From: a virus
Lineage: Duplodnaviria > Caudoviricetes
Strand: one strand, 5' to 3'
DNA: 64,000 bases
Virus record (IMG/VR): IMGVR_UViG_3300037312_001491
Coordinates: 24,096-88,095 of that record
Shown here: positions 6,589-37,094 of the stretch, piece after piece
How positions within the stretch are numbered: position 1 is the first letter of the stretch
Layout of the letters: every line of letters starts with the position of its first letter
Position numbers and translations under genes: made by a program
Notes under the pieces: generated by a model
Told to the model about the DNA's origin: nothing
Seen by the model: only the letters and a program-made list of their open reading frames with translations
Databases searched by the model: none

Positions 6589-7059
6589 ATGACCAAGACC
6601 CAGACCACGCGCGTCGCTGACGCGTCCCCCGCCCCGAAGGGCGGCGTGACCATCTTCTCTGCGAAGGACGCGGCCGCGGCCGCGCGTCCGTTCATGCGGC
6701 TCGACGAGCAGGAGACTCTCGTCGTGCTGCACCTCGACGTGCACAACAAGGTGATCGGGGATCCGCGCATCGCGGCCATCGGCACCATGACGAGCGTCGA
6801 GTGTCACCCACGCGACGTGTTCCGTGCCGCCATCGCGACCAACGCGGCCGCTGTCGTCGTGCTCCACAACCACCCGGTCGGCGACCCGACGCCGAGCGAC
6901 GCGGACATCGGCGTCACCCAGCGGCTCCTCGCCGCGGGCATCGCGCTCGGTATTCCGGTCCTCGACCATGTAGTCGTGACGGCCGACAACCACGTGTCGA
7001 TCCGCGAGCAGGGCGGTGGCGGTGTGGCCTACGAGCGCGTGCCGGAGGTGACGCTGTGA
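6589..7059 (+). CDS. radC: RadC-family JAB/MPN domain protein
   Basis: E..VVLHLD..NKVI, HPRDVF, LHNHPVGDPTPSDAD, LDHVVV signature. Confidence 0.9.
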   Translation: MTKTQTTRVADASPAPKGGVTIFSAKDAAAAARPFMRLDEQETLVVLHLDVHNKVIGDPRIAAIGTMTSVECHPRDVFRAAIATNAAAVVVLHNHPVGDPTPSDADIGVTQRLLAAGIALGIPVLDHVVVTADNHVSIREQGGGGVAYERVPEVTL

Positions 7060-9221
7060 AGCCCAACCAGGAAGTTCAGACCGTCGCCACGAGCGCGACA
7101 GCGTCGGCGTCGTTCGGCATCTCGCGCGCGGACGAGGCCCACATCATGGGCATCCTGCGCAGCACCCTCTACTCCGACAAGATCCTCGCGGTCCTGCGCG
7201 AGTACGGCGCGAACGCGTGGGACGCCCACCGCTCCGTCGGCCGCGGCGATGTCCCCATCGAGGTGACGTTGCCGACGTACGACGCGCCCGTCCTGCGCAT
7301 CCGCGACCGCGGCCCCGGCCTGTCGCGCAACGAGGTGTTCACCGTCTACACCCAGTACGGCGCGAGTAGCAAGCGCGACGACGACAACGCGGTCGGCATG
7401 CTCGGTATCGGCTCCAAGTCGGGCTTCTCGTACGCGAGCAGCTTCACGATCACGAGCTGGCACGCCGGCACCAAAGCGATCTACGTCGCGGCGCTCGACC
7501 CGAGCAACCGCGGCCTCATCAACCTCATCCACGAGCAGTGCCTGTGCTGCGAACGCCCCGTCGGCACGAAGAAGGACGAGGCCGACGAGACGGTCTACTG
7601 CGAGTGCACCGCGCGGCTCGCGCCCGAGACCGGCATCGAGATCCAGATCGTCGTGAAGCCGGCCGACGTCGACAAGTTCGAGGAGCGCGCCGAGCGGCTG
7701 TACGTCCACTTCGAGCCGCGTCCGACCATCAACATCCAGCTCCCTCCGCCCCCCGAGGGCGGGCTCACGAACGAGCATGGAACCATCCGTCCAGGTGGCC
7801 ACGGTGACTGGGTTGCGGTGATGGGCTGCGTGCCGTACCGCATCCGCCTGGGCGAGCTGGACCTGTGCGCCGAGCACCAGTGCCTGCACAACCTGTCCGG
7901 CATCATCCGGTTCGGCATCGGCGACGTGCAGATCGCCGCCTCGCGCGAGGACCTCGACTACACCGACGCGACGCGCGCCGCCATCACGGCGAAGTTCACG
8001 GAGCTGGTCGACGCGTTCGTCACGCAGTCGGTCGCCGAGCTGGAGGCGATGAGCCTGTGGGACCGGCGCCTCCGCGCGCAGGTGCTCAGCAACCTTGGTA
8101 TCACCCTGCCGGCCGAGTACGGCGAAATCGCCAAGGGCTGGGTGAAGTTGTTCGAGCCGAGCGACGACGGCGTGCCGTTCCGCATGTGGCACGTCAGCGA
8201 GCAGACCAGCCAGATCCAGGTCGAACCGGACACGCGCATCTACATCGACGACACCGGCAAGCTCCTCAAGGGCTACGCCCGCTCGATGGAGCGGCACTAC
8301 TACGTGGTGCGCGCCAAGACGCGCGGCATGTCGTACGACGACCTCAAGGCCGTCGTCGACGAGCACATCAACGCGTGCCTCGTCACCGGCATCCCCATCC
8401 ATCGGCTCTCCGAGCTGCACTGGGACTCGACCGCCAGCTCGCGTGGCGGCCGCTCGTGGGGTGCCGACAAGAGCAAGCACAAGGCGTCGATGTTCGTCCT
8501 CGACCCCGAGGCGCAGTTCAAGCACCCGTTCTCCAACGCGTGGTCGACGGTGACGCGTGTCCCCGAGGACACCGACGTGTTCGTCATCCTGGAGAACTTC
8601 AAACCCAACGGGGTCGACTCGTTCTTCCTGGAGTACCGCGACGACCGCGTGCTCGCCGAGGCGTTCGGCGTCGAGATGCCGCAGGTCTACGGGTACAAGT
8701 CGACGACGAAGAAGACCGTCCGCCCGTCTGACTGCAAGGGGCTCACGTACGACGCGTGGCGCAAGCAGTTCATCAAGGACCTCGGCACGCCCGAGCGCCT
8801 CGCCGAGATCTCCGAGATGTGGTGGGGGCACGTGCTCCGCTACACGGCCGACAGGTACGACCGCAAGTTTCTGCGCGAGCAGCTCGGCCGCGACCACGCC
8901 GTCGTCCGCCTCGTCTCTCGGTGCGCACACGCCGACAGCATGAAGAACCGGGACGCGCTGCTCGCGCTCGCGACTCGGCTTGGCATCGCGAAGGACACGT
9001 CGGCCGCGCACGCGGCACTCGAAGAGATCCTCAACCGCTACCCGCTGCTCCGGTGCAGCGACTACGGCGTCCGGTCGCTGTGGTTGAACTACACCCGGAA
9101 CCACCGCAACGAGTGGTGCAAGTACGTACGCCTCGTTGACGAAAGCCTAAATCGTACCCAGACTGTCGACACCAAGAAAGGAACCGCCACCGATGCAGCC
9201 GATTCCGTACAGCCTGTCTAA
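7056..9221 (+). CDS. rIIA: rIIA-like protein (GHKL ATPase N-terminus)
   Basis: LYSDKILAVLREYGANAWDAH, IRDRGPGLS, GMLGIGSKSGFSY motifs; followed by an rIIB-like gene; GTG start 7056. Confidence 0.85.
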   Translation: MKPNQEVQTVATSATASASFGISRADEAHIMGILRSTLYSDKILAVLREYGANAWDAHRSVGRGDVPIEVTLPTYDAPVLRIRDRGPGLSRNEVFTVYTQYGASSKRDDDNAVGMLGIGSKSGFSYASSFTITSWHAGTKAIYVAALDPSNRGLINLIHEQCLCCERPVGTKKDEADETVYCECTARLAPETGIEIQIVVKPADVDKFEERAERLYVHFEPRPTINIQLPPPPEGGLTNEHGTIRPGGHGDWVAVMGCVPYRIRLGELDLCAEHQCLHNLSGIIRFGIGDVQIAASREDLDYTDATRAAITAKFTELVDAFVTQSVAELEAMSLWDRRLRAQVLSNLGITLPAEYGEIAKGWVKLFEPSDDGVPFRMWHVSEQTSQIQVEPDTRIYIDDTGKLLKGYARSMERHYYVVRAKTRGMSYDDLKAVVDEHINACLVTGIPIHRLSELHWDSTASSRGGRSWGADKSKHKASMFVLDPEAQFKHPFSNAWSTVTRVPEDTDVFVILENFKPNGVDSFFLEYRDDRVLAEAFGVEMPQVYGYKSTTKKTVRPSDCKGLTYDAWRKQFIKDLGTPERLAEISEMWWGHVLRYTADRYDRKFLREQLGRDHAVVRLVSRCAHADSMKNRDALLALATRLGIAKDTSAAHAALEEILNRYPLLRCSDYGVRSLWLNYTRNHRNEWCKYVRLVDESLNRTQTVDTKKGTATDAADSVQPV

Positions 9222-11469: not shown

Positions 11470-14214
11470 ATGGCCGACGAGAAGTCCGGGCGCACGAAGC
11501 GAGGCACGTTTGCACCTGGCACCTCCGGCAACCCCAGCGGCAGGGCGAAGCCCCGAACCGACGCCGCGCCGGTTACCAGGCTGGACGGCTGGCAGAACTT
11601 CTTCTCCGGCCATGGTGTCTACGGCCGCGACAAGCGCCAGGGGACGAGCTTCAAGGCCGCCACCCTGACGTTCGACCAGCTCGCCGAGCTGTGGCGCGGC
11701 GACGACCTCGCGGCACGCGCCGTCGAGACGCTGCCGAAAGAGTCTCTCCGCGAGGGTTACGATCTGTCGATCCCCGAGGCGGCGCTGGGTGGCGAGGACG
11801 AGGCCGAGCGCATCGCCGAGATCGTCGACGCCCTGTCGACACTGGGGGCGGACGAGACGATCCGTACCGGCCTCTGCTACGAGCGTGGCCTAGGTGGTGG
11901 CGCCGTCCTCATCGGCGCGAACGACGGCCAGGACGACCTGACCAAGCCGCTGCGCCTCGAATCCATCCGTTCGCTCGACTGGCTGACCCCGCTCGAACCG
12001 CGCGAGATCATGCCGGTGTACGGCTACGCCGACCCGCGCGCCCCGAAGTACGGCCAGCCCGAGATCTACCGCATCACGAGCCGCACCATCCTGCCACCGC
12101 AGGATGGCAAGTACGGCAACCAGGTGATGGACATCCACGAGTCGCGGCTCCTGGTGTTCCCCGGCATCCGCGTCAGCCGCTACCAGTACATGGCCTCCCA
12201 GGGCGGTTGGGGTGACTCGGTGCTCATCCGCATGTGGCGCGTGCTCCGCGACTTCAACCTCGCGTGGGGCTCCGCCGGCGCGCTCGTCACCGAGTTCGCC
12301 TCGGCGACGTACAAGATGAAGGACCTGTGGACGGCGCTGTCGACGAAGGGCGGCGCGCAGGCGTTCGCCGAACGCCTCCAGGCGATGGACCTGGCACGGT
12401 CGACCATCAACGCGACTGTCATCGACGGCGACGACGACTTCAAGCGCGAGCAGACGCCGATCTCCGGCCTGCCCGACCTCATGGACAAGTTCTCGACGCG
12501 CCTCGCGGCGGCCGCGGACATGCCGCTCACGCTCCTGTTCGGCACGAGCCCGGCGGGCCTCAACGCCACCGGCGAGTCTGACATTCGCTTCTTCTACGAC
12601 CGCGTCGCCGCGTTCCAGCGCGACAAGGTGCTGCCGCAGCTCAAGACGCTGATCCGGATTCTGTTCCGCACACTCGGCTCAAAGGTGGAGCCCGAGAAGT
12701 GGGACGTCGAGTTCCGTCCACTGTGGCAGGAGAGCGCCAAGGACAAGGCCGCCGCGATGCTCACGCAGGCGCAGGCCGACCACATCTGGGTCACCGACGG
12801 CATGCTGTCGGCCGAGGAGGTGGCGGACGCACACTGGGGCACCGGCAAGTGGGTCCCCGACCTCCGCGTCGACTTCGAGGCGCGCGAGCGCCAGGAGGCT
12901 GCGGCCGCCGCGCCGGTCACGCAAGCTGACTTCGCGGCGATGGGTCGCGGCCCCAACGGCCAGCCGCTCCAGCCAATGCCGGGCCAGCGCCAACTCCAGC
13001 CGGGCCCCGCGCAGTTCGGTCGCCCGCAGCCGCAGCCTGGCTTCGGACAGCCGGTGCAGCGCCAGCTCCAGCCCGGCCCGGCGATGCCAGGTCAGAAGCC
13101 GGTCCCTGGCCAGCAGTCACCCGGTCAGGCGCCAGGCGCGGCCGCCGCTCAGGGTGCCGCCCCCGGCGCAGCTCCGGGCGCGAAGGCGTCGAAGCTCGGC
13201 GCCAGCGGCTACCGCTACGCACCGGACGTCACCCAGCGTGGCCAGGGGGCCGACGACGACATCGACCGCAAGCCGCGCTCGATGGTGCTGTCGAACGACG
13301 CCGACGACCGTCCGCAGCTCAGCGTGGTGCGCGAGGACGTGATCGAGCATGCGTCCGACGGATGGCACGTCTACTCCGAGACCGAGCCGCGCAAGCATCT
13401 CGGCGGCCCGTACCAGACGAAGGAAGGCGCGATTGAACGACTGCGCCAGGTCGAGGGCCACGCCCGTGACGACAGCTTCAACCCGGACCAGCCACGCGCC
13501 GAGAATGGCGAGTGGGGCGAGGGCGGCGCCGGTGGCGCGCACCCGAGCGCACCGACGTCCGGCGAGCACGCCGCAGCGCAGGGCACCTCGTTCGAGCAGG
13601 CCGTCCACGCGGTCTCAGCCGGCGAGAAGCACGGCATGACCGCCGAGCACTTCAAGGCGCTCGTCGAGAGGAAGAAGGCGGAGTCCGACGCGCACAAGAA
13701 CGCGGTCCAGGCGTTCGCCGCCAAGCTCACGCCGATCGAGACGCAGGTCTCCAATGGCTACGGCGTGTTCGGAGAGGTCGTCAACGGTGCACTCCGCGCC
13801 GGTCGCCCGCCCAGCTCGGCCGACGAGAAGGCCGCGATCGGTGCGCTCGATAGTGCCATCAGGAAGTCGAAGGCGCCGGCCGACATGATCGTGTACCGCG
13901 GCATCCACAGTGACCGGGACCCGATGGCCAAGCTCAAGCCCGGTGTCGTCATCCGCGACAAGGGTTACGTGTCGACGACAGGTTCCCGAGACATTGCGGC
14001 CGAGTTCGCGCACCGGGAACACACCGGCAAGCTCGATCCGTCGTCCACGAGCGTCATCGTGAGGATCAAGGTTCCCAAGGGCCACCCAGCCGCGCCGATT
14101 CCGTCGACGTACCGGTTCGAGCACGAGTACCTCCTGCCTCGCGGCAGCAAGTTCAAGATCACCTCGGTCGCGAAAGAGGGCGGGGACACCGTCGTCGAAG
14201 CGGAGGCCCTGTGA
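11470..14214 (+). CDS. portal protein (DUF1073-type) fused to C-terminal ADP-ribosyltransferase
   Basis: aa ~30-470 portal-like (LWRGDDLAARAVETLP, IHESRLL, WGDSVL, GTSPAGLNATGESDIRFFYD, EFRPLWQ); Q/P linker; ART motifs VYRG (13894), STT (13972), EHE (14119). Confidence 0.85.
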   Translation: MADEKSGRTKRGTFAPGTSGNPSGRAKPRTDAAPVTRLDGWQNFFSGHGVYGRDKRQGTSFKAATLTFDQLAELWRGDDLAARAVETLPKESLREGYDLSIPEAALGGEDEAERIAEIVDALSTLGADETIRTGLCYERGLGGGAVLIGANDGQDDLTKPLRLESIRSLDWLTPLEPREIMPVYGYADPRAPKYGQPEIYRITSRTILPPQDGKYGNQVMDIHESRLLVFPGIRVSRYQYMASQGGWGDSVLIRMWRVLRDFNLAWGSAGALVTEFASATYKMKDLWTALSTKGGAQAFAERLQAMDLARSTINATVIDGDDDFKREQTPISGLPDLMDKFSTRLAAAADMPLTLLFGTSPAGLNATGESDIRFFYDRVAAFQRDKVLPQLKTLIRILFRTLGSKVEPEKWDVEFRPLWQESAKDKAAAMLTQAQADHIWVTDGMLSAEEVADAHWGTGKWVPDLRVDFEARERQEAAAAAPVTQADFAAMGRGPNGQPLQPMPGQRQLQPGPAQFGRPQPQPGFGQPVQRQLQPGPAMPGQKPVPGQQSPGQAPGAAAAQGAAPGAAPGAKASKLGASGYRYAPDVTQRGQGADDDIDRKPRSMVLSNDADDRPQLSVVREDVIEHASDGWHVYSETEPRKHLGGPYQTKEGAIERLRQVEGHARDDSFNPDQPRAENGEWGEGGAGGAHPSAPTSGEHAAAQGTSFEQAVHAVSAGEKHGMTAEHFKALVERKKAESDAHKNAVQAFAAKLTPIETQVSNGYGVFGEVVNGALRAGRPPSSADEKAAIGALDSAIRKSKAPADMIVYRGIHSDRDPMAKLKPGVVIRDKGYVSTTGSRDIAAEFAHREHTGKLDPSSTSVIVRIKVPKGHPAAPIPSTYRFEHEYLLPRGSKFKITSVAKEGGDTVVEAEAL

Positions 14215-16205
14215 GCAATAAGCGTTTCACCTGGACCGACGGCGACTTCGAGGTCGTCGAGTCGGGCGACCGCACCGACGACTTCAACCCCGACGAGCCT
14301 CGCGCGGCGGATGGGAAATGGGGCGAGGGCGGCGCCGGCGCCGCACAGAAGACTCCGGCCGCCGGCAAGGCCGGTCCGAAGGGTGAGGCTAAGGAGGCCG
14401 CGGAGTCCAAGGACAAGCCGAAGGCCGAAGACAAGCCGGCCGCGGAGGTGAAGGCGACCACCGCGCACACCGGCGCGTCGTTCGAGGACTGGCACAAGGT
14501 CAACCCGAACGGCAACGGTGAGGTGTTCTCGGACGCGCGCAAGGCGCTCGCGACCGAGACCGTCGGCCAGAACGCGTGGTTCAACTTCTCGAAGGCGAAC
14601 GAGGGCAAGCCGGTCAGCCAGCGCAGCTTCGCCGATCAGAAGGCGTTCCTGCTCGACCCCAAGCTGTACCAGCCGCTCATCGACCGTGCGACGAAGCACG
14701 ACGCCGCGGACGACGAGGACACGGACCTCTACTTCACGTGCCCGTGCCACCGCCGAGCGGCGGCCGCCCGCGCTGACTACGATGAGAGCGAGCCGCGCGA
14801 CGAGAACGGCAAGTGGAGTGGTGGCGGTGGCGGCAGCGCGGCCGCCCCCCACGCACACGGGGGCGAGCACGGCGCACCGCACGGCGGCGCCAAGGAGCTG
14901 GCTGAGAAGGCGAACGCCGGCGGCGGCTTCACCTACGACCCGCACCACGGCAAGTACCCGACGGAAGGCTACGCGGTCTCGATCCACCCGGGCCACGAAG
15001 AGGTCATCCGCTCGAAGGAGCTTTCGCCGGAGGCCGTGAAGGGTTACCTTGACCGGCACGGAGACTACATCCAGAAGCACCCCGGTGCTCACGTCGGCGG
15101 TTGGTATGACGCCGAGGCGGGCAAATGGTACCTGGACGTCAGCCACATCACGCACGACCCACACGAGGCGGAATCCCTCGCGAAGCAGCACAACCAGGAA
15201 GCGTACTACGACCTCGGCAAGCACGAGACCGTCTACGTCAAGTCTGGAAAGGAACGACGACTCGATGAGCGACAAGCCCAAGACACCGCCCGCCGGCGCA
15301 CGAAAGATCTTCTTCGACCCCGCCAAGATGTCCCCCGAGGAGATCGCGGAGGCGATGAAGAAGCACGAGGAGCAGGAGCACGCGCGCCGGGGAATCCCCC
15401 GGAAGCCCGAGTAGACTACTCCCCCGACGAGCCGCGCGCGGCCGATGGGAAGTGGGGCGATGGCGGTGGCGGTGGCCGCGCGGCCGCGTCGTCGCACGTC
15501 GAGCACGCCAAGACCTCGTCGGTCCGCTCGCGCGAGCACGCCGGGAAGGCCGAGACGGAGGCCGACCGCGCGAAGGCGTCGAAGGGCAAGGCGCAGGCCA
15601 AGCACGTCGAGGCGGCGCACGACCACGCCCGCGAGGCCGAGCGTCACGCCCGCGAGGCGAGCGCCGCGGCTGACCGCGCGAAGGAGGCCGGCGGCGAGGA
15701 CTCGCCGTCCGCCAAGGAGGCGTCCAAGCACGCCGTCGAGGCGACCTCCAACGCGAAGGCAGCCCGCACGCAGGCGTCCGGTGCACAGAAGGCCGCGTCG
15801 TCTGGCGGGCAGGCCGGTGCCGCGCGCGCCGCCGCCGACAAGGCGACGAAGGTGGCGGAGAATCTCCACGCCGCCGCGGTTGAGCACCCGACGAAGGCCG
15901 GGCCGACCGCCGAGGAGGCGGACAAACACGCCAAGGCCGCACGCGACCACGCCCGCGCAGCCGCCGGCGCAAAGACGCCCGAGGACGCCGCACAGCACAC
16001 GGCGAAAGCACACGAGCACGCCGCCGCGGCGGAAGAGGCGGCCGCCAAGCTGACCCGCGAGGCCGCGAAGCACGCGCAGCATGAAGGCCACGGCAAGCAC
16101 GCCGAACACGGCGGCCATGGCAAGCACGAGCGCGCCGAGCACAACCACAAGCACGTCGCCGAGAGTTGGCAGGCCCTGCTCAAGATGCTCATGGGTGCCG
16201 GATGA
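14211..16205 (+). CDS. multi-module head-associated protein with three tag repeats
   Basis: 664 aa; three R-x-D..PR...GKW repeats separate distinct modules; Ala/His-rich C-terminus. Confidence 0.7.
   Translation: MSNKRFTWTDGDFEVVESGDRTDDFNPDEPRAADGKWGEGGAGAAQKTPAAGKAGPKGEAKEAAESKDKPKAEDKPAAEVKATTAHTGASFEDWHKVNPNGNGEVFSDARKALATETVGQNAWFNFSKANEGKPVSQRSFADQKAFLLDPKLYQPLIDRATKHDAADDEDTDLYFTCPCHRRAAAARADYDESEPRDENGKWSGGGGGSAAAPHAHGGEHGAPHGGAKELAEKANAGGGFTYDPHHGKYPTEGYAVSIHPGHEEVIRSKELSPEAVKGYLDRHGDYIQKHPGAHVGGWYDAEAGKWYLDVSHITHDPHEAESLAKQHNQEAYYDLGKHETVYVKSGKERRLDERQAQDTARRRTKDLLRPRQDVPRGDRGGDEEARGAGARAPGNPPEARVDYSPDEPRAADGKWGDGGGGGRAAASSHVEHAKTSSVRSREHAGKAETEADRAKASKGKAQAKHVEAAHDHAREAERHAREASAAADRAKEAGGEDSPSAKEASKHAVEATSNAKAARTQASGAQKAASSGGQAGAARAAADKATKVAENLHAAAVEHPTKAGPTAEEADKHAKAARDHARAAAGAKTPEDAAQHTAKAHEHAAAAEEAAAKLTREAAKHAQHEGHGKHAEHGGHGKHERAEHNHKHVAESWQALLKMLMGAG
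15265..15414 (+). CDS. nested out-of-frame small ORF (49 aa)
   Basis: MSDKPKTPPAGARKIFFDPAKMSPEEIAEAM...; G/C-ending codons in this frame while the host frame has many A/T-ending codons; AGGAA upstream. Confidence 0.55.
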   Translation: MSDKPKTPPAGARKIFFDPAKMSPEEIAEAMKKHEEQEHARRGIPRKPE

Positions 16206-17569
16206 GCTGCTGTCGCCTCGACCGCGGGGCGCTGCCGAAGCCGAAGCGGCCGCGTACCCTGCCCATCCAGGTCCCGCCGACAGCGATCGAGGCCCAGTAC
16301 GCCAAGGCGCTCGTCCGGTACGTCATCGGCGCGATGCGCTGGGCGTACGCGCCGCTGCTGCGCGAGGCCCCCAAGCTCGTCAAGGCGCGCGCGGCCGCGC
16401 GGCACGACTCCGCCGACGAGTGCACTACGACGATGTTCGCCGGGCTACCGATCGTAATCGAGAACCCGGCCGGCTCGTTCCGGTACTGGGTCGACACGAC
16501 CGGGCGCGCCGGCACGACGGTGATGCGGTACCCGTACGGCTACGTCCGCGGCGTGCGTGGCGCCGACGGTGACGAGGTCGACGTGTTTATCGGTCCAGAC
16601 GAAGCGGCGCAGTGGGTGTACATCGTGCACCAGCGGTTCGCGCCGAAGTTCGTCGACTTCGACGAGGACAAGGTGATGCTCGGGTTCCCGAGCGCCGACG
16701 CCGCGCGCGCGGCGTACCTCGCGCACTACGACGACCCCCGCTACTTCGGGGGGATGACCCAGGTCCAGCGCGAGGCGTTCGAGCGCGCGGTCGCGGCCGC
16801 TCGCGGCGGCAAGATCACCCACGTCGACTCGCTGACGGCCGTCGCTCGCTACGACTCCCCGGAGTCGCGTCGGGTGCAGAAGCTCATCCGCGAGGCCGCA
16901 CGCCGGCTCCGGCTCAAGCTCAACAAGCGCGAGATCGCGCGGCTGGCGAAAAAGTTCGCCGAGCAGACGAGCACGTACCAGCGCGTGCAGCTCCACCGCC
17001 AGGTCCACGCGGCCCTGGGCATCGCGGCGCCGCTCGCCGCCGAGTACACGCAGAGTCGCATCGCCGACTTCGTTCGCGAGAACGTCGCGCTCATCTCGCG
17101 GATTCCACAGGAGCACCACGGCGAAATCGAGACGATGGTCCACCGTGCGGTCACCAGCGGCCAGCTCACCGACGATCTCGCCGACGACCTGGAGGACGAG
17201 TTCGCGCTCTCCGAACGCCACGCGCGTTTCATCGCTCGTGATCAGATCGGCAAGCTCCAGGCCGACCTCAACCACGCGCGCCAGCGTGACCTCGGCGTCA
17301 AAAAGTTTGTGTGGCGGACGATGCGCGACGAGCGCGTCCGCGGCACGCCCGGCGGCCTGTACCCCAACGCGCAGCCCAGCCACTTCGACCTCGATGGCCA
17401 GGAGTTCTCCTACGACGACCCTCCGCAGCCACCTGGTGCCCAGGGGCCGCTTCTACCCGGGGATGACTACAACTGCCGCTGCTACGCCGAACCAGTTTTT
17501 GATGAGCTGGTGGAGGACCTGCGCGTGGCCGAAGTCGATCCGGACGAAGCGTCGATGGAAGCGGAATAG
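16202..17569 (+). CDS. MuF/SPP1 gp7-like minor head protein with inserted inorganic-pyrophosphatase-like domain
   Basis: ARFIARDQIGKL, KKFVWRTMRDERVR, H..LDG..F, PGDDYNCRC (MuF); insert IENPAGS.R..YPYGY..GADGDEVDVFIG..DEDKVMLGF at ~16400-16855. Confidence 0.85.
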   Translation: MSCCRLDRGALPKPKRPRTLPIQVPPTAIEAQYAKALVRYVIGAMRWAYAPLLREAPKLVKARAAARHDSADECTTTMFAGLPIVIENPAGSFRYWVDTTGRAGTTVMRYPYGYVRGVRGADGDEVDVFIGPDEAAQWVYIVHQRFAPKFVDFDEDKVMLGFPSADAARAAYLAHYDDPRYFGGMTQVQREAFERAVAAARGGKITHVDSLTAVARYDSPESRRVQKLIREAARRLRLKLNKREIARLAKKFAEQTSTYQRVQLHRQVHAALGIAAPLAAEYTQSRIADFVRENVALISRIPQEHHGEIETMVHRAVTSGQLTDDLADDLEDEFALSERHARFIARDQIGKLQADLNHARQRDLGVKKFVWRTMRDERVRGTPGGLYPNAQPSHFDLDGQEFSYDDPPQPPGAQGPLLPGDDYNCRCYAEPVFDELVEDLRVAEVDPDEASMEAE

Positions 17570-23799: not shown

Positions 23800-24620
23800 G
23801 CGGCCCAGGCATCGCATGGACGACGGTCGAGGATGCTCTCCACGACTGGATCACGTACGCCACCGGCCTCGCGAACGACCACGTCATCTGGTCCGGGCAG
23901 AACGCCGACCGGCCTTCGACGCCGTTTGTCGAGATGACGCTTGGCGTGGTCCAGCGCGTCGGCCTGGACGGCGTGCAGTTCGTCGACGCGCCGCTCGTGC
24001 TCGCGCCACTCGTGGCGACGCCGACGGTCGCGACGAGCACGTTCCTCTCCGTCGCCCACGGCCGCAACACCGGTGACGGTCCGGTCCGCCCGACCGCGGA
24101 CGGCTACGGTCTGCTCGCCGACACCAACTACTGGTTCATCGTCATCGACGCCGACCACTTCCAGCTGGCGACGTCGTTCCAGCTCGCGATGGCGCTGACG
24201 GCGCTCGCGCTCTCCGCGGGATCGGGCAACGTGACGTTCGCCTCCACCGCGGACACCGTGGCCGCCGGCGCCGAGATGACTGCGAAGTCTTTCGGCATGC
24301 GGAGGGTGCGCGTCACGTTCCAGGCGTTCGCCACCGACGCCTTCGGGAACAACGCCGCCGGGCCGCTGCTCGACTCGGTGGTCACCGCTCTGCCGCGCCG
24401 CGCCAGCACCCTGCGTGCGGCGGGGGTTTGCGTGCTGGACTGCAACGCCGTCACCACGAGCGGCGGGGTCATTGATTCCAGCATCTTCGAGCCACGGGCG
24501 GTCCTGGAGATCGTCCTGTCGCTCGCCAGTGAAGTCGACGAACCGACCACGCGGATCGAACGCGCCCTGGTCACCCCCACCGTCGATGGGGTCGTCAAGC
24601 CGACCACCACGGTGGCCTGA
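23796..24620 (+). CDS. tail terminator/neck protein with internal beta-rich insertion
   Basis: Precedes sheath; VIWSGQNADRP.TPF N-terminus; insert AHG..TGD..V...NTYWF..DADHFQLA. Confidence 0.6.
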   Translation: MSGPGIAWTTVEDALHDWITYATGLANDHVIWSGQNADRPSTPFVEMTLGVVQRVGLDGVQFVDAPLVLAPLVATPTVATSTFLSVAHGRNTGDGPVRPTADGYGLLADTNYWFIVIDADHFQLATSFQLAMALTALALSAGSGNVTFASTADTVAAGAEMTAKSFGMRRVRVTFQAFATDAFGNNAAGPLLDSVVTALPRRASTLRAAGVCVLDCNAVTTSGGVIDSSIFEPRAVLEIVLSLASEVDEPTTRIERALVTPTVDGVVKPTTTVA

Positions 24621-36300: not shown

Positions 36301-37094
36301 CCTACTCGCCGACAGAGAACAAGTACAAGTCGCAGCACCTGGAGATGAACGAGGAGTTTATCGGCGGTTTTAATAACCCGACGAACGGTATGTTCTTTGA
36401 CGGGTGGTTCAGCGCTGCGTTTTCTGGAGCCTCGGCAACAGTTGGGACAATCAGCGCAACGACCGCCGTGGCTGGGCGACCCGGAGTCTGGACGGTATTT
36501 AGTGGCACAGCCTCTACCGGGTTCTCCTATATCTACACGAGCCGCAGTACATTCAATCTCGCCGACGAGACAGGATGGATTGCCTCTACAGTCGAAGTGC
36601 CGCAACTTAGCAACGGCACCGATGATTTCGTGCTGGTCGATGGCTGGTACGACAACACGAACGCGGCGCCGACGGATGCGATTTACTTCCTGTACGACGG
36701 ACAAAATCATTTGGCTGGTGGTGCAAATCCAAGCAAGCTGGACAAGTGGGAGGCATGTGTGGCCAAGAGCGGTTCGCGGCTGTGCTATCTGCTTGATGGG
36801 ACGACTGCCTGCGACGGTGGATTCACGTCAGTGAACGTTCCGGTTTCAACTACAAGCTACGAACGGTTCATTGTCGTGTACTCGCCGAACGAGGCAGATT
36901 TCTATGTCGACCAGGGCAGTGGCAGGACAAAGGTATGCCAGATCACGACGGCAGCCGACCTACCGATCGGGGGCGTAGGCAACGCGACGGGCGCCGCGTT
37001 TGGAATCCTGAAGGCTACGGGGACAACCGCAGTGCAGGCATTCATCGATCAGATGAACGTCGCGATCGACCTCAACGCCGCAAGGAGCCCGTGA
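33390..37094 (+). CDS. large Gly/Thr/Ser-rich fibre- or adhesin-like protein (1234 aa) with N-terminal signal/lipobox-like sequence
   Basis: ATG 33390; MNTRYLRYLLAALFLTAWCSNAGC; repeats GTGT.G.L..(W/F)T....LGN; carbohydrate-binding-like segment WTFSVWMK...YG.QIEQ..GPTPYQ. Confidence 0.7.
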   Translation: MNTRYLRYLLAALFLTAWCSNAGCGTGDNATADAGGAGNFDHPSTGFGGPIAPQGGTITGITGTSGVTGNCAAGPCTLSADTTFVQKRVTGTCASGLAIGTVNADGTVSCNTAGISGTGTTGDLTAWATSTSLGNYAGSSPAPCTVGNVTTGVSIGANGVLANTCTAIGTQGGTTGTGTANTLAMFTGPTAIGNGPLVYNGTDTITGPRVYAVSSSSSNPVFQATQSGATPSNWWMGSVIGTTTWFLGNDNAATTAMTATYAGDVTLPHNVTLGSSSGNLHTFFGTTQTTDGAGYLRHTSASGINYIESGTTQSSGSTAPLLFTDMLAAHTWGEFDASGNFLAFNNATITKKVSTSNDSSGGGYQIDGIDTLYRHGADGHLYLVNPYSVGGSGAYNVVIKPSSTGGADVLSTNGGTFTLDASANATLTGALVTGLNVDVGGTNWHTILNWNGSTNEDSYLRAGKTAGAVYVGDVNTGGVYLGGGANYSDATGGLYAGTAGDFADELQVSKVRKNAAPNSDAVGDNSGASCTGAPSWTVCNYTDTLTYATATTTSPRGLSETVGKLTASGTAGSDYRFYAKSASHGVSDVRSQTWTFSVWMKLVSGGPATLAVQLARNNFANDVTAASCSVGSSAWTRCSVVATFSATSYTDNSEIDASIFDVTTSTGAVYIYGSQIEQHNGPTPYQRNDATLDTTVSSGTLSMHAPMARFGQYEQDPDVYVRYFDDTSGAYYGLLSRAPASGGTVCVDGGTCTPASASEAITGRTLGGGAIAIHGDATAGGTAGQFDGGVNVTGTLTVPTVTGSSTLDISAFDQLTISTSDSHAVGMTLEESGFGSLDIKATGIGNAVNISSASGPVTISGQLVFGVFSPASISGMQNNWAPSGIASAIIVRIATSTVADITGISTCTVDGRYLILRNVSSNVVRLWDHDSRSSAANEFALNNDIVSLPPGEAMAITCSTNDSKWHQTALSYSPTENKYKSQHLEMNEEFIGGFNNPTNGMFFDGWFSAAFSGASATVGTISATTAVAGRPGVWTVFSGTASTGFSYIYTSRSTFNLADETGWIASTVEVPQLSNGTDDFVLVDGWYDNTNAAPTDAIYFLYDGQNHLAGGANPSKLDKWEACVAKSGSRLCYLLDGTTACDGGFTSVNVPVSTTSYERFIVVYSPNEADFYVDQGSGRTKVCQITTAADLPIGGVGNATGAAFGILKATGTTAVQAFIDQMNVAIDLNAARSP

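Follow-up and report, generated by a model that had tools for sequence, protein, structure and literature searches.

In phage lambda, the gene Rz1 lies overprinted inside Rz, nested in a different reading frame. A related arrangement is described here for a 64,000-nucleotide stretch of phage DNA (hereafter the window; positions 24,096 to 88,095 of IMG/VR virus record IMGVR_UViG_3300037312_001491), in which a 49-codon open reading frame (ORF) at 15265-15414 is contained out of frame in an unbroken ORF of 664 amino acids (aa), P0001, at 14211-16205. The large ORF comprises three units, each headed by a copy of a short sequence tag; the small one starts at the end of the second unit, referred to as the GGFT module, and stops in the tag of the third. 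We consider it probable that the ORF at 15265-15414 is a real small gene which, in the +1 frame, has been overprinted on the linker within a packaged cargo protein of several domains. As with Rz1 and Rz, a complete small +1 gene would be held wholly inside a larger gene, and both products would be expected from one mRNA and to be functionally linked. The present case differs from the lambda pair in that the host frame appears to carry no information over the overlap, forming only an open spacer between domains, and in that relatives also carry the small gene on its own or as an in-frame fusion; furthermore, its expression is predicted from sequence.

A packaged-cargo architecture has been described for the polyvalent proteins of phages and conjugative elements (Iyer et al. 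2017, PMC5512222). Such proteins share with the locus studied here a multi-domain composition, a gene position beside portal and MuF, presumed packaging and injection, and the occurrence of ART, InPase and Zeta-type domains in the same genes. The 664-aa product likewise unites several unrelated effector or unknown domains in one polypeptide within the phage head module. What sets it apart is the gene nested between domains, which is not mentioned in the searched passages of PMC5512222, and the GGFT module itself, which matches no Pfam family. The polymorphic toxins carried by MuF proteins and their presumed immunity genes offer another comparison, as 89% of MuF toxin genes have an ORF of <150 aa downstream (Jamet et al. 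2017, PMC5576092). In one related locus (L032), the module extends a MuF protein at its C-terminus, and a small ORF comes directly after it. This matches the MuF layout, in which the head-associated carrier bears a variable C-terminal domain and a small ORF stands at once behind it. Unlike in those systems, in-frame fusion of peptide and module is common here, which is unusual for immunity proteins, and a length of 35-50 aa is very short; the toxin and immunity roles are putative in our case.

Pairs of compensatory frameshifting mutations have been reported by Biba et al. (2022, PMC8935012) and in RNA viruses (PMC8127213). Similarly, the window differs from its relative L004 by non-triplet indels of 20 and 8 nt (-20/+8), whose sum is a multiple of three and which jointly restore the frame and scramble 49 residues. 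The displaced frame, however, is here still conserved, delimited by start and stop codons, and part of a layout recurring across phages, instead of having been released from selection. Compared with these systems, the arrangement appears to be an overprinted phage gene in a variant setting, namely within polyvalent cargo proteins. Gene callers report the 664-aa ORF alone, and the peptide family is invisible in most annotations unless it is free-standing and called.

A coding signature out of frame

The nested ORF lies on the + strand in frame 1, that is, in +1 relative to the host ORF, and consists of 49 sense codons and a TAG (150 nt). Its ATG (15265-15267) overlaps the codons CGA CTC GAT (R-L-D, 15258-15266), which form the family-conserved end of the module (..ERR-L/I-D), and its TAG (15412-15414) overlaps CGA GTA GAC (R-V-D, 15408-15416), with which the next tag starts. 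A first-pass annotation of the window had described this geometry, and the sequence bears it out. It had further suggested that cleavage at the R-x-D sites on both sides could excise the frame-0 spacer and that the small gene might serve the preceding module as an immunity protein or chaperone; both ideas are hypothetical. The predicted peptide is laid out as a basic N-terminus, a short hydrophobic strand, a D-P pair and an amphipathic helix (..SPEEIAEAM..).

The same annotation had pointed to a codon contrast between the two frames, and the contrast is strong. Over 15265-15414, G or C occupies the third codon position (GC3) in 45/49 codons of frame 1 vs 22/49 of frame 0, while the rest of the 664-aa ORF stands at 309/351 and 235/263, or ~88% (Fisher p = 1e-12). 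The codon log-likelihood is -179 with frame 1 taken as coding vs -235 for frame 0, which places frame 1 ahead by 56 natural-log units. In frame 0, the stretch encodes a spacer of 49 residues rich in R, D, G and A (15267-15413, + strand), with an off-frame codon signature, that joins unit 2 to tag 3. Inside the confident genes of the window there is no other 50-codon stretch with comparably inverted usage, the non-genic 5' extension of the ORF at 6621-9218 excepted, and among the + strand genes of the window the nested stretch is the sole place where the coding signal leaves its frame for at least 100 nt without a stop and then returns.

Two other irregularities were considered and set aside. 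A 75-nt frame blip at 36442-36517 was regarded as noise, and a GC3 excursion in the portal ORF at 12991-13171 was rejected as a second nested gene and assigned to a P/Q/G-rich linker. This low-complexity linker spans 12940-13190 and leads from the portal domain to the downstream modules; it shifts the profile of GC by codon position and in this way mimics a change of frame.

The openness of frame 0 across the nested gene is not evidence by itself, because the -1 off-frame of genes in this genome is commonly open: it runs without a stop across 50 codons 67% of the time. How readily off-frames stay open is illustrated by an 806-aa HATPase-like gene, whose stop-to-stop ORF runs ~150 codons upstream (6621-7066), off-frame over the preceding gene, and is no extension of the gene. 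The case illustrates how a high-GC phage genome can fuse adjacent cargo genes: the short gene between them is read through in the -1 frame, which is naturally open, and is itself kept.

A peptide family found separate, fused or nested

A family of peptides of ~35-50 aa adjoins the GGFT module in 11 loci (alignment A8). The first-pass annotation had suggested looking for a separate ORF behind the module in homologues, and such ORFs are present. In L029, the module ends with ..E-R-R-N and a stop, and 2 nt later an ATG opens a 51-codon gene in the +2 frame, with a GC3 of 0.97; the encoded peptide and that of the window share 37% identity (E=8e-7). The two peptides begin with M-S-N-D-Q-K (L029) and M-S-D-K-P-K (window), and a start of the M-S-D-K type is common to the window, L004 and L029. 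In L020, L031 and L032, a small +1 ORF overlaps the 3' end of the module, as it does, judged by coordinates, in the contig of P0004. The nested form, in which a +1 peptide follows the R-R codons of the module and the ORF continues in frame 0, occurs in the window and in L026 (P0005), L027 (P0014), L028 (P0008), L021 and L022; L023 is a second contig with the same reading as L022 at the nested site, and P0014 is carried by 6 contigs. The in-frame fused form is found in L004 (P0011) and, at the protein level, in P0107, P0042, P0019, P0036, P0070 and others (E<0.01).

This distribution, across many unrelated phages, shows that the peptide family is a conserved partner of the module and no accident; it suggests that the peptide is an ancestral companion and that separate, fused and nested forms are interchangeable configurations. 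The core of the earlier proposal, a small partner gene that goes with the GGFT module in front of it and a large frame that simply remains open, is supported by this conserved and recurrent arrangement. Its wording of a gene that had been captured is a misfit, as the peptide appears to be the ancestral companion of the module in all these forms.

Among the proteins that match unit 2, the closest informative one is P0011, encoded on the syntenic 86-kb contig L004, where a homologue of the frame-1 peptide connects the module in frame to the tag that follows and coding continues in one frame throughout. The first nine residues of the two peptides are identical, the serine being encoded by AGC in one and by TCG in the other. 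At the DNA level, the window differs from L004 by -20 nt just before the ATG, +8 nt just before tag 3 and -3/+3 inside, with a net difference of -12. In L004 (6001-6930) the module is without its N-terminal half, the GGFT strand region being absent after the tag. A Shine-Dalgarno (SD)-like GAAGGA stands 7 nt ahead of the Met of the in-frame peptide in L004, and translation might likewise start internally at this Met.

Selection on the +1 frame can be followed across the nested loci. GC3 in the five others is 0.73-0.87 in the +1 frame vs 0.42-0.58 in frame 0, compared with 0.91 vs 0.44 in the window. In a 14-codon core of the nested loci, pairwise differences fall on +1 codon positions 1/2/3 as 29/23/42, and amino-acid identity is higher in the +1 frame than in frame 0 in 5/6 pairs. 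When nine homologous peptides from other phages were combined into a profile, with the window and L004 excluded, this profile matched a single one of the 1074 six-frame fragments of the window, namely the frame-1 ORF (E=8.6e-7); the next best fragment had E=1. The second half of the peptide evolves fast. Taken together, these comparisons indicate that the +1 frame is under purifying selection across relatives.

With the 49-aa peptide alone as query, there was no match by tblastn against phages, in viral contigs, in a set of 5.8 billion proteins (at near and longer lengths) or in the ESM Atlas, and none in Pfam at E<=10; a profile search of the PDB gave weak matches only, the best to uL29 at E=0.005. 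The exact pattern M-S-D-K-P-K-T-P-P returned only chance matches in viral, metagenome and genome contigs, and an early tail profile, for which the in-frame tails had been badly selected, missed the window peptide. A shuffle test was positive, and the nine-peptide profile clearly so.

As regards the host frame, the same frame-0 ORF encodes a recognised domain downstream of the nested peptide in two relatives, of the ART type in P0014 (E=3e-25) and of the Zeta-toxin type in P0005 (E=1e-13). Because of these domains, and because tag 3 of the window is without its own start codon, frame 0 must presumably be translated across the overlap. Spacers equivalent to that of the window are found in P0005, P0014 and P0008, and they share D-R-R-G, which is E-I-A-E-A read one base early. 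It appears that frame 0 across the overlap is an open spacer only and that the spacers resemble each other merely as off-frame echoes of the peptide.

Expression of the peptide

Immediately upstream of the nested ATG lies a probable translation-initiation region (15243-15264, + strand), which comprises eight atypical frame-0 codons, TCT GGA AAG GAA CGA CGA CTC GAT, and contains the SD-like element GAAAGGA at 15247-15253. The residues encoded by these codons are family-conserved, and their synonymous-codon score is matched or undercut in only 8/10,399 eight-codon windows of the genes of the window (lowest 0.08%). CGA makes up 3.1% of Arg codons here, GGA 4.0% of Gly codons and GTA 2.2% of Val codons, and GAAAGGA occurs twice in 128 kb (both strands). 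At the other end, the GTA GAC codons of tag 3 (R-V-D) provide the TAG of the nested gene; the +1 stop falls in a frame-0 GTA (Val) codon in 5/6 nested loci and in CTA in the sixth. Independent initiation is favoured for the window because its ATG is homologous to the start of the L029 gene and because the preceding rare codons form GAAAGGA. The window peptide most likely initiates at its own ATG, a candidate start proposed from the sequence.

We propose that the ancestral unit was a two-part cassette, consisting of the GGFT module and then a peptide of ~35-50 aa. In the nested state, a module ORF without its stop would read the peptide gene in its -1 frame as an open spacer and rejoin the next tagged unit. 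The window peptide would start at ATG 15265, served by the atypical SD-like stretch at 15243-15264, and the 664-aa protein would be made in parallel from the same mRNA. Its repeated fusion to the module makes it most plausible that the peptide acts on or with the module, as a putative antidote, chaperone or packaging adaptor. In an AlphaFold2 (AF2) model of the in-frame relative P0093, the tail has a predicted local distance difference test (pLDDT) score of 52-59, and the model is uninformative on docking. A bolder form of this proposal, which we put forward only as a speculation and think unlikely, is that the 150 nt are used twice: frame 0 would be a content-free spacer that strings cargo together, the +1 frame would encode the antidote or adaptor, amounting to an immunity-type gene hidden in an effector polyprotein, and phages would switch between separate, fused and nested forms by small indels. 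In its strongest version, the peptide would be appended by a new +1 frameshift at tandem Arg codons (CGN CGN), which would set the ratio of module-plus-tail to polyprotein.

Several observations weigh against separate initiation of an overprinted gene, and part of them point to recoding instead. The SD-like element of the window is 11 nt from the ATG, farther than at the other gene starts inspected, and its AAGGA part is an automatic product of the Lys-Glu dipeptide. In the other out-of-frame loci, start codons are at non-homologous positions, and in several loci the tail has no ATG close to its beginning. The peptide is in frame in the closest relative, L004, so the state seen in the window could be young; it is covalently attached to the module in many relatives, as a frameshift product would mimic, and 10/11 out-of-frame cases (with L022 and L023 counted separately and the P0004 contig included from coordinates only, without DNA) are +1 and not +2, which hints at a frame-specific mechanism such as frameshifting. 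Accordingly, a programmed +1 ribosomal frameshift just after the R-R codons could append the peptide to the module and end at the TAG at 15412, while unshifted ribosomes would enter unit 3. The common in-frame tails imply that such a covalent product would be functional, L020 and L031 have CGG CGG CTC followed by a stop (TGA C / TAA G), loosely like a shifty stop, and tandem rare CGA CGA codons stand at the junction in the window and L027. However, no slippery or re-pairing site is conserved across loci, the R-R codons alone being shared, and these are conserved at the protein level in all family members. The L029 gene is +2 with an obvious start codon of its own, its M-S-D-K-type start recurs in the window and L004, and every other out-of-frame locus has some start codon in the peptide frame with a purine-rich element upstream. 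The shared +1 may simply be inherited and is mildly favoured by the greater openness of the -1 off-frame (0.67 vs 0.46), and no stimulatory RNA structure was found in 15390-15500, the 3' end, which was the sole region folded (z=-0.42). We regard the programmed frameshift as unlikely, though it deserves more credit than the explanations that follow. Slippage by -1 on the C5 run (15396-15400) was considered and rejected, since a canonical heptamer is lacking and nothing stands out in the fold downstream (z=-0.42).

The first working reading of the locus was that of a relic, in which an L004-like in-frame linker had recently suffered a 20-nt deletion, the frame had been restored 150 nt on by an 8-nt insertion, and the unexpressed frame 1 still looked coding for want of time. 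The alignment with L004 contains exactly these indels and L004 codes continuously in one frame; the fast evolution of the second half of the peptide and the low AF2 confidence for the tail of the in-frame relative would also suit it. The reading was dropped once wider sampling had revealed a recurring peptide family. At least 5 other, distantly related phage loci have the same out-of-frame layout and show selection on the +1 frame; these cannot all be recent accidents, and decay would leave unexplained the start codon, the atypical codons upstream and a stop placed exactly in a rare GTA; we now consider the relic improbable. Two compensating indel errors in sequencing or assembly, which the first-pass annotation had named among what would overturn its proposal, seem hardly credible. 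Nothing specific speaks for them beyond the C5 run and an A3 run at 15248-15250 that could in principle host indels. L014, a 34-kb contig assembled independently from a different JGI sample, agrees with the window across 5995 nt except for one single-nucleotide polymorphism at 16558, and random assembly error is excluded because this contig carries the same sequence. Moreover, there is no other frame break in the 64 kb, the indels relative to L004, at 20 and 8 nt, do not look like homopolymer slips, and the same layout is present in other assemblies. An overprinted small gene with a start of its own is therefore the reading that we prefer.

For some relatives, a different start may be considered. 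In L020 (1940-1954) and, at the equivalent position, in L026 and L028, the conserved Q-E-(A/G)-x-Y-D of the module is encoded as CAG GAG/GAA G.. ... TAT GAC, and this coding gives an AGGAGG-like element and a +1 ATG ~53-56 nt upstream of where the R-R codons end. This ATG, at the Y-D codons, might be a start that the overlapping peptide ORFs have in common, for which the argument from the TAT codon is only weakly significant.

The GGFT module and the head gene cluster

The GGFT module proper (14880-15263, + strand) ends with the family-conserved ..K-E-R-R-L(-D). When unit 2 (14811-15263) was searched against 1.84 billion representative proteins at E<=1e-3, 2761 of them matched, and in 36/145 mapped matches the protein ends within 8 residues of the module end. 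The module is a very widespread phage domain. It corresponds to PHROG 3170 and 17808, families of unknown function, and its matches in phage databases are annotated as 'internal virion protein' or as hypothetical. Its AF2 model has a pLDDT of 86, with a core of about 96, and comparison with solved structures gave no clear match (best Foldseek E=0.1; best VIA-align Z=4.4). A related-locus search of viral contigs and metagenomes returned no close relatives of the module locus. A widespread cargo module with a seemingly obligate small companion could offer a handle on the role, harmlessness and capsid loading of packaged proteins.

The window belongs to an 88-kb IMG/VR virus record with 67.8% GC, and the locus is part of a head-morphogenesis module in which a gene for portal and ART (11470-14214) is followed by the 664-aa ORF, a gene for InPase and MuF (16166-17569), DUF2213 and the major capsid protein. 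P0001 itself, a multi-module head cargo ('polyvalent') ORF unbroken in frame 0 of the + strand and without a Pfam family, starts with a GTG that overlaps the stop codon of the portal-ART gene. The tags at the head of its three units follow the consensus R-x-D-Y/F-x-P-D-E-P-R-..-G-K-W-G-x-G-G-G. Tag 3, in which the nested gene ends, reads R-V-D-Y-S-P-D-E-P-R-..-G-K-W-G-x-G-G-G-G (15408-15475, + strand, frame 0).

A fourth tag sits ahead of ART in the portal gene, and the copies in the portal-ART gene and P0001 are located at 13471-13560, 14283-14345, 14775-14835 and 15414-15475, with a different cargo unit behind each. Together they show the pattern D-x-F/Y-x-P-D-E/Q-P-R-..-G-K/E-W-G-x-G-G. Copies 1 and 3 are 85% identical in DNA, a likeness that points to concerted evolution or to a shuffling of modules at these tags. 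In free-standing relatives, a tag core of P-R-D-x-x-G-R/Q-F is found within ~20 residues of the N-terminus.

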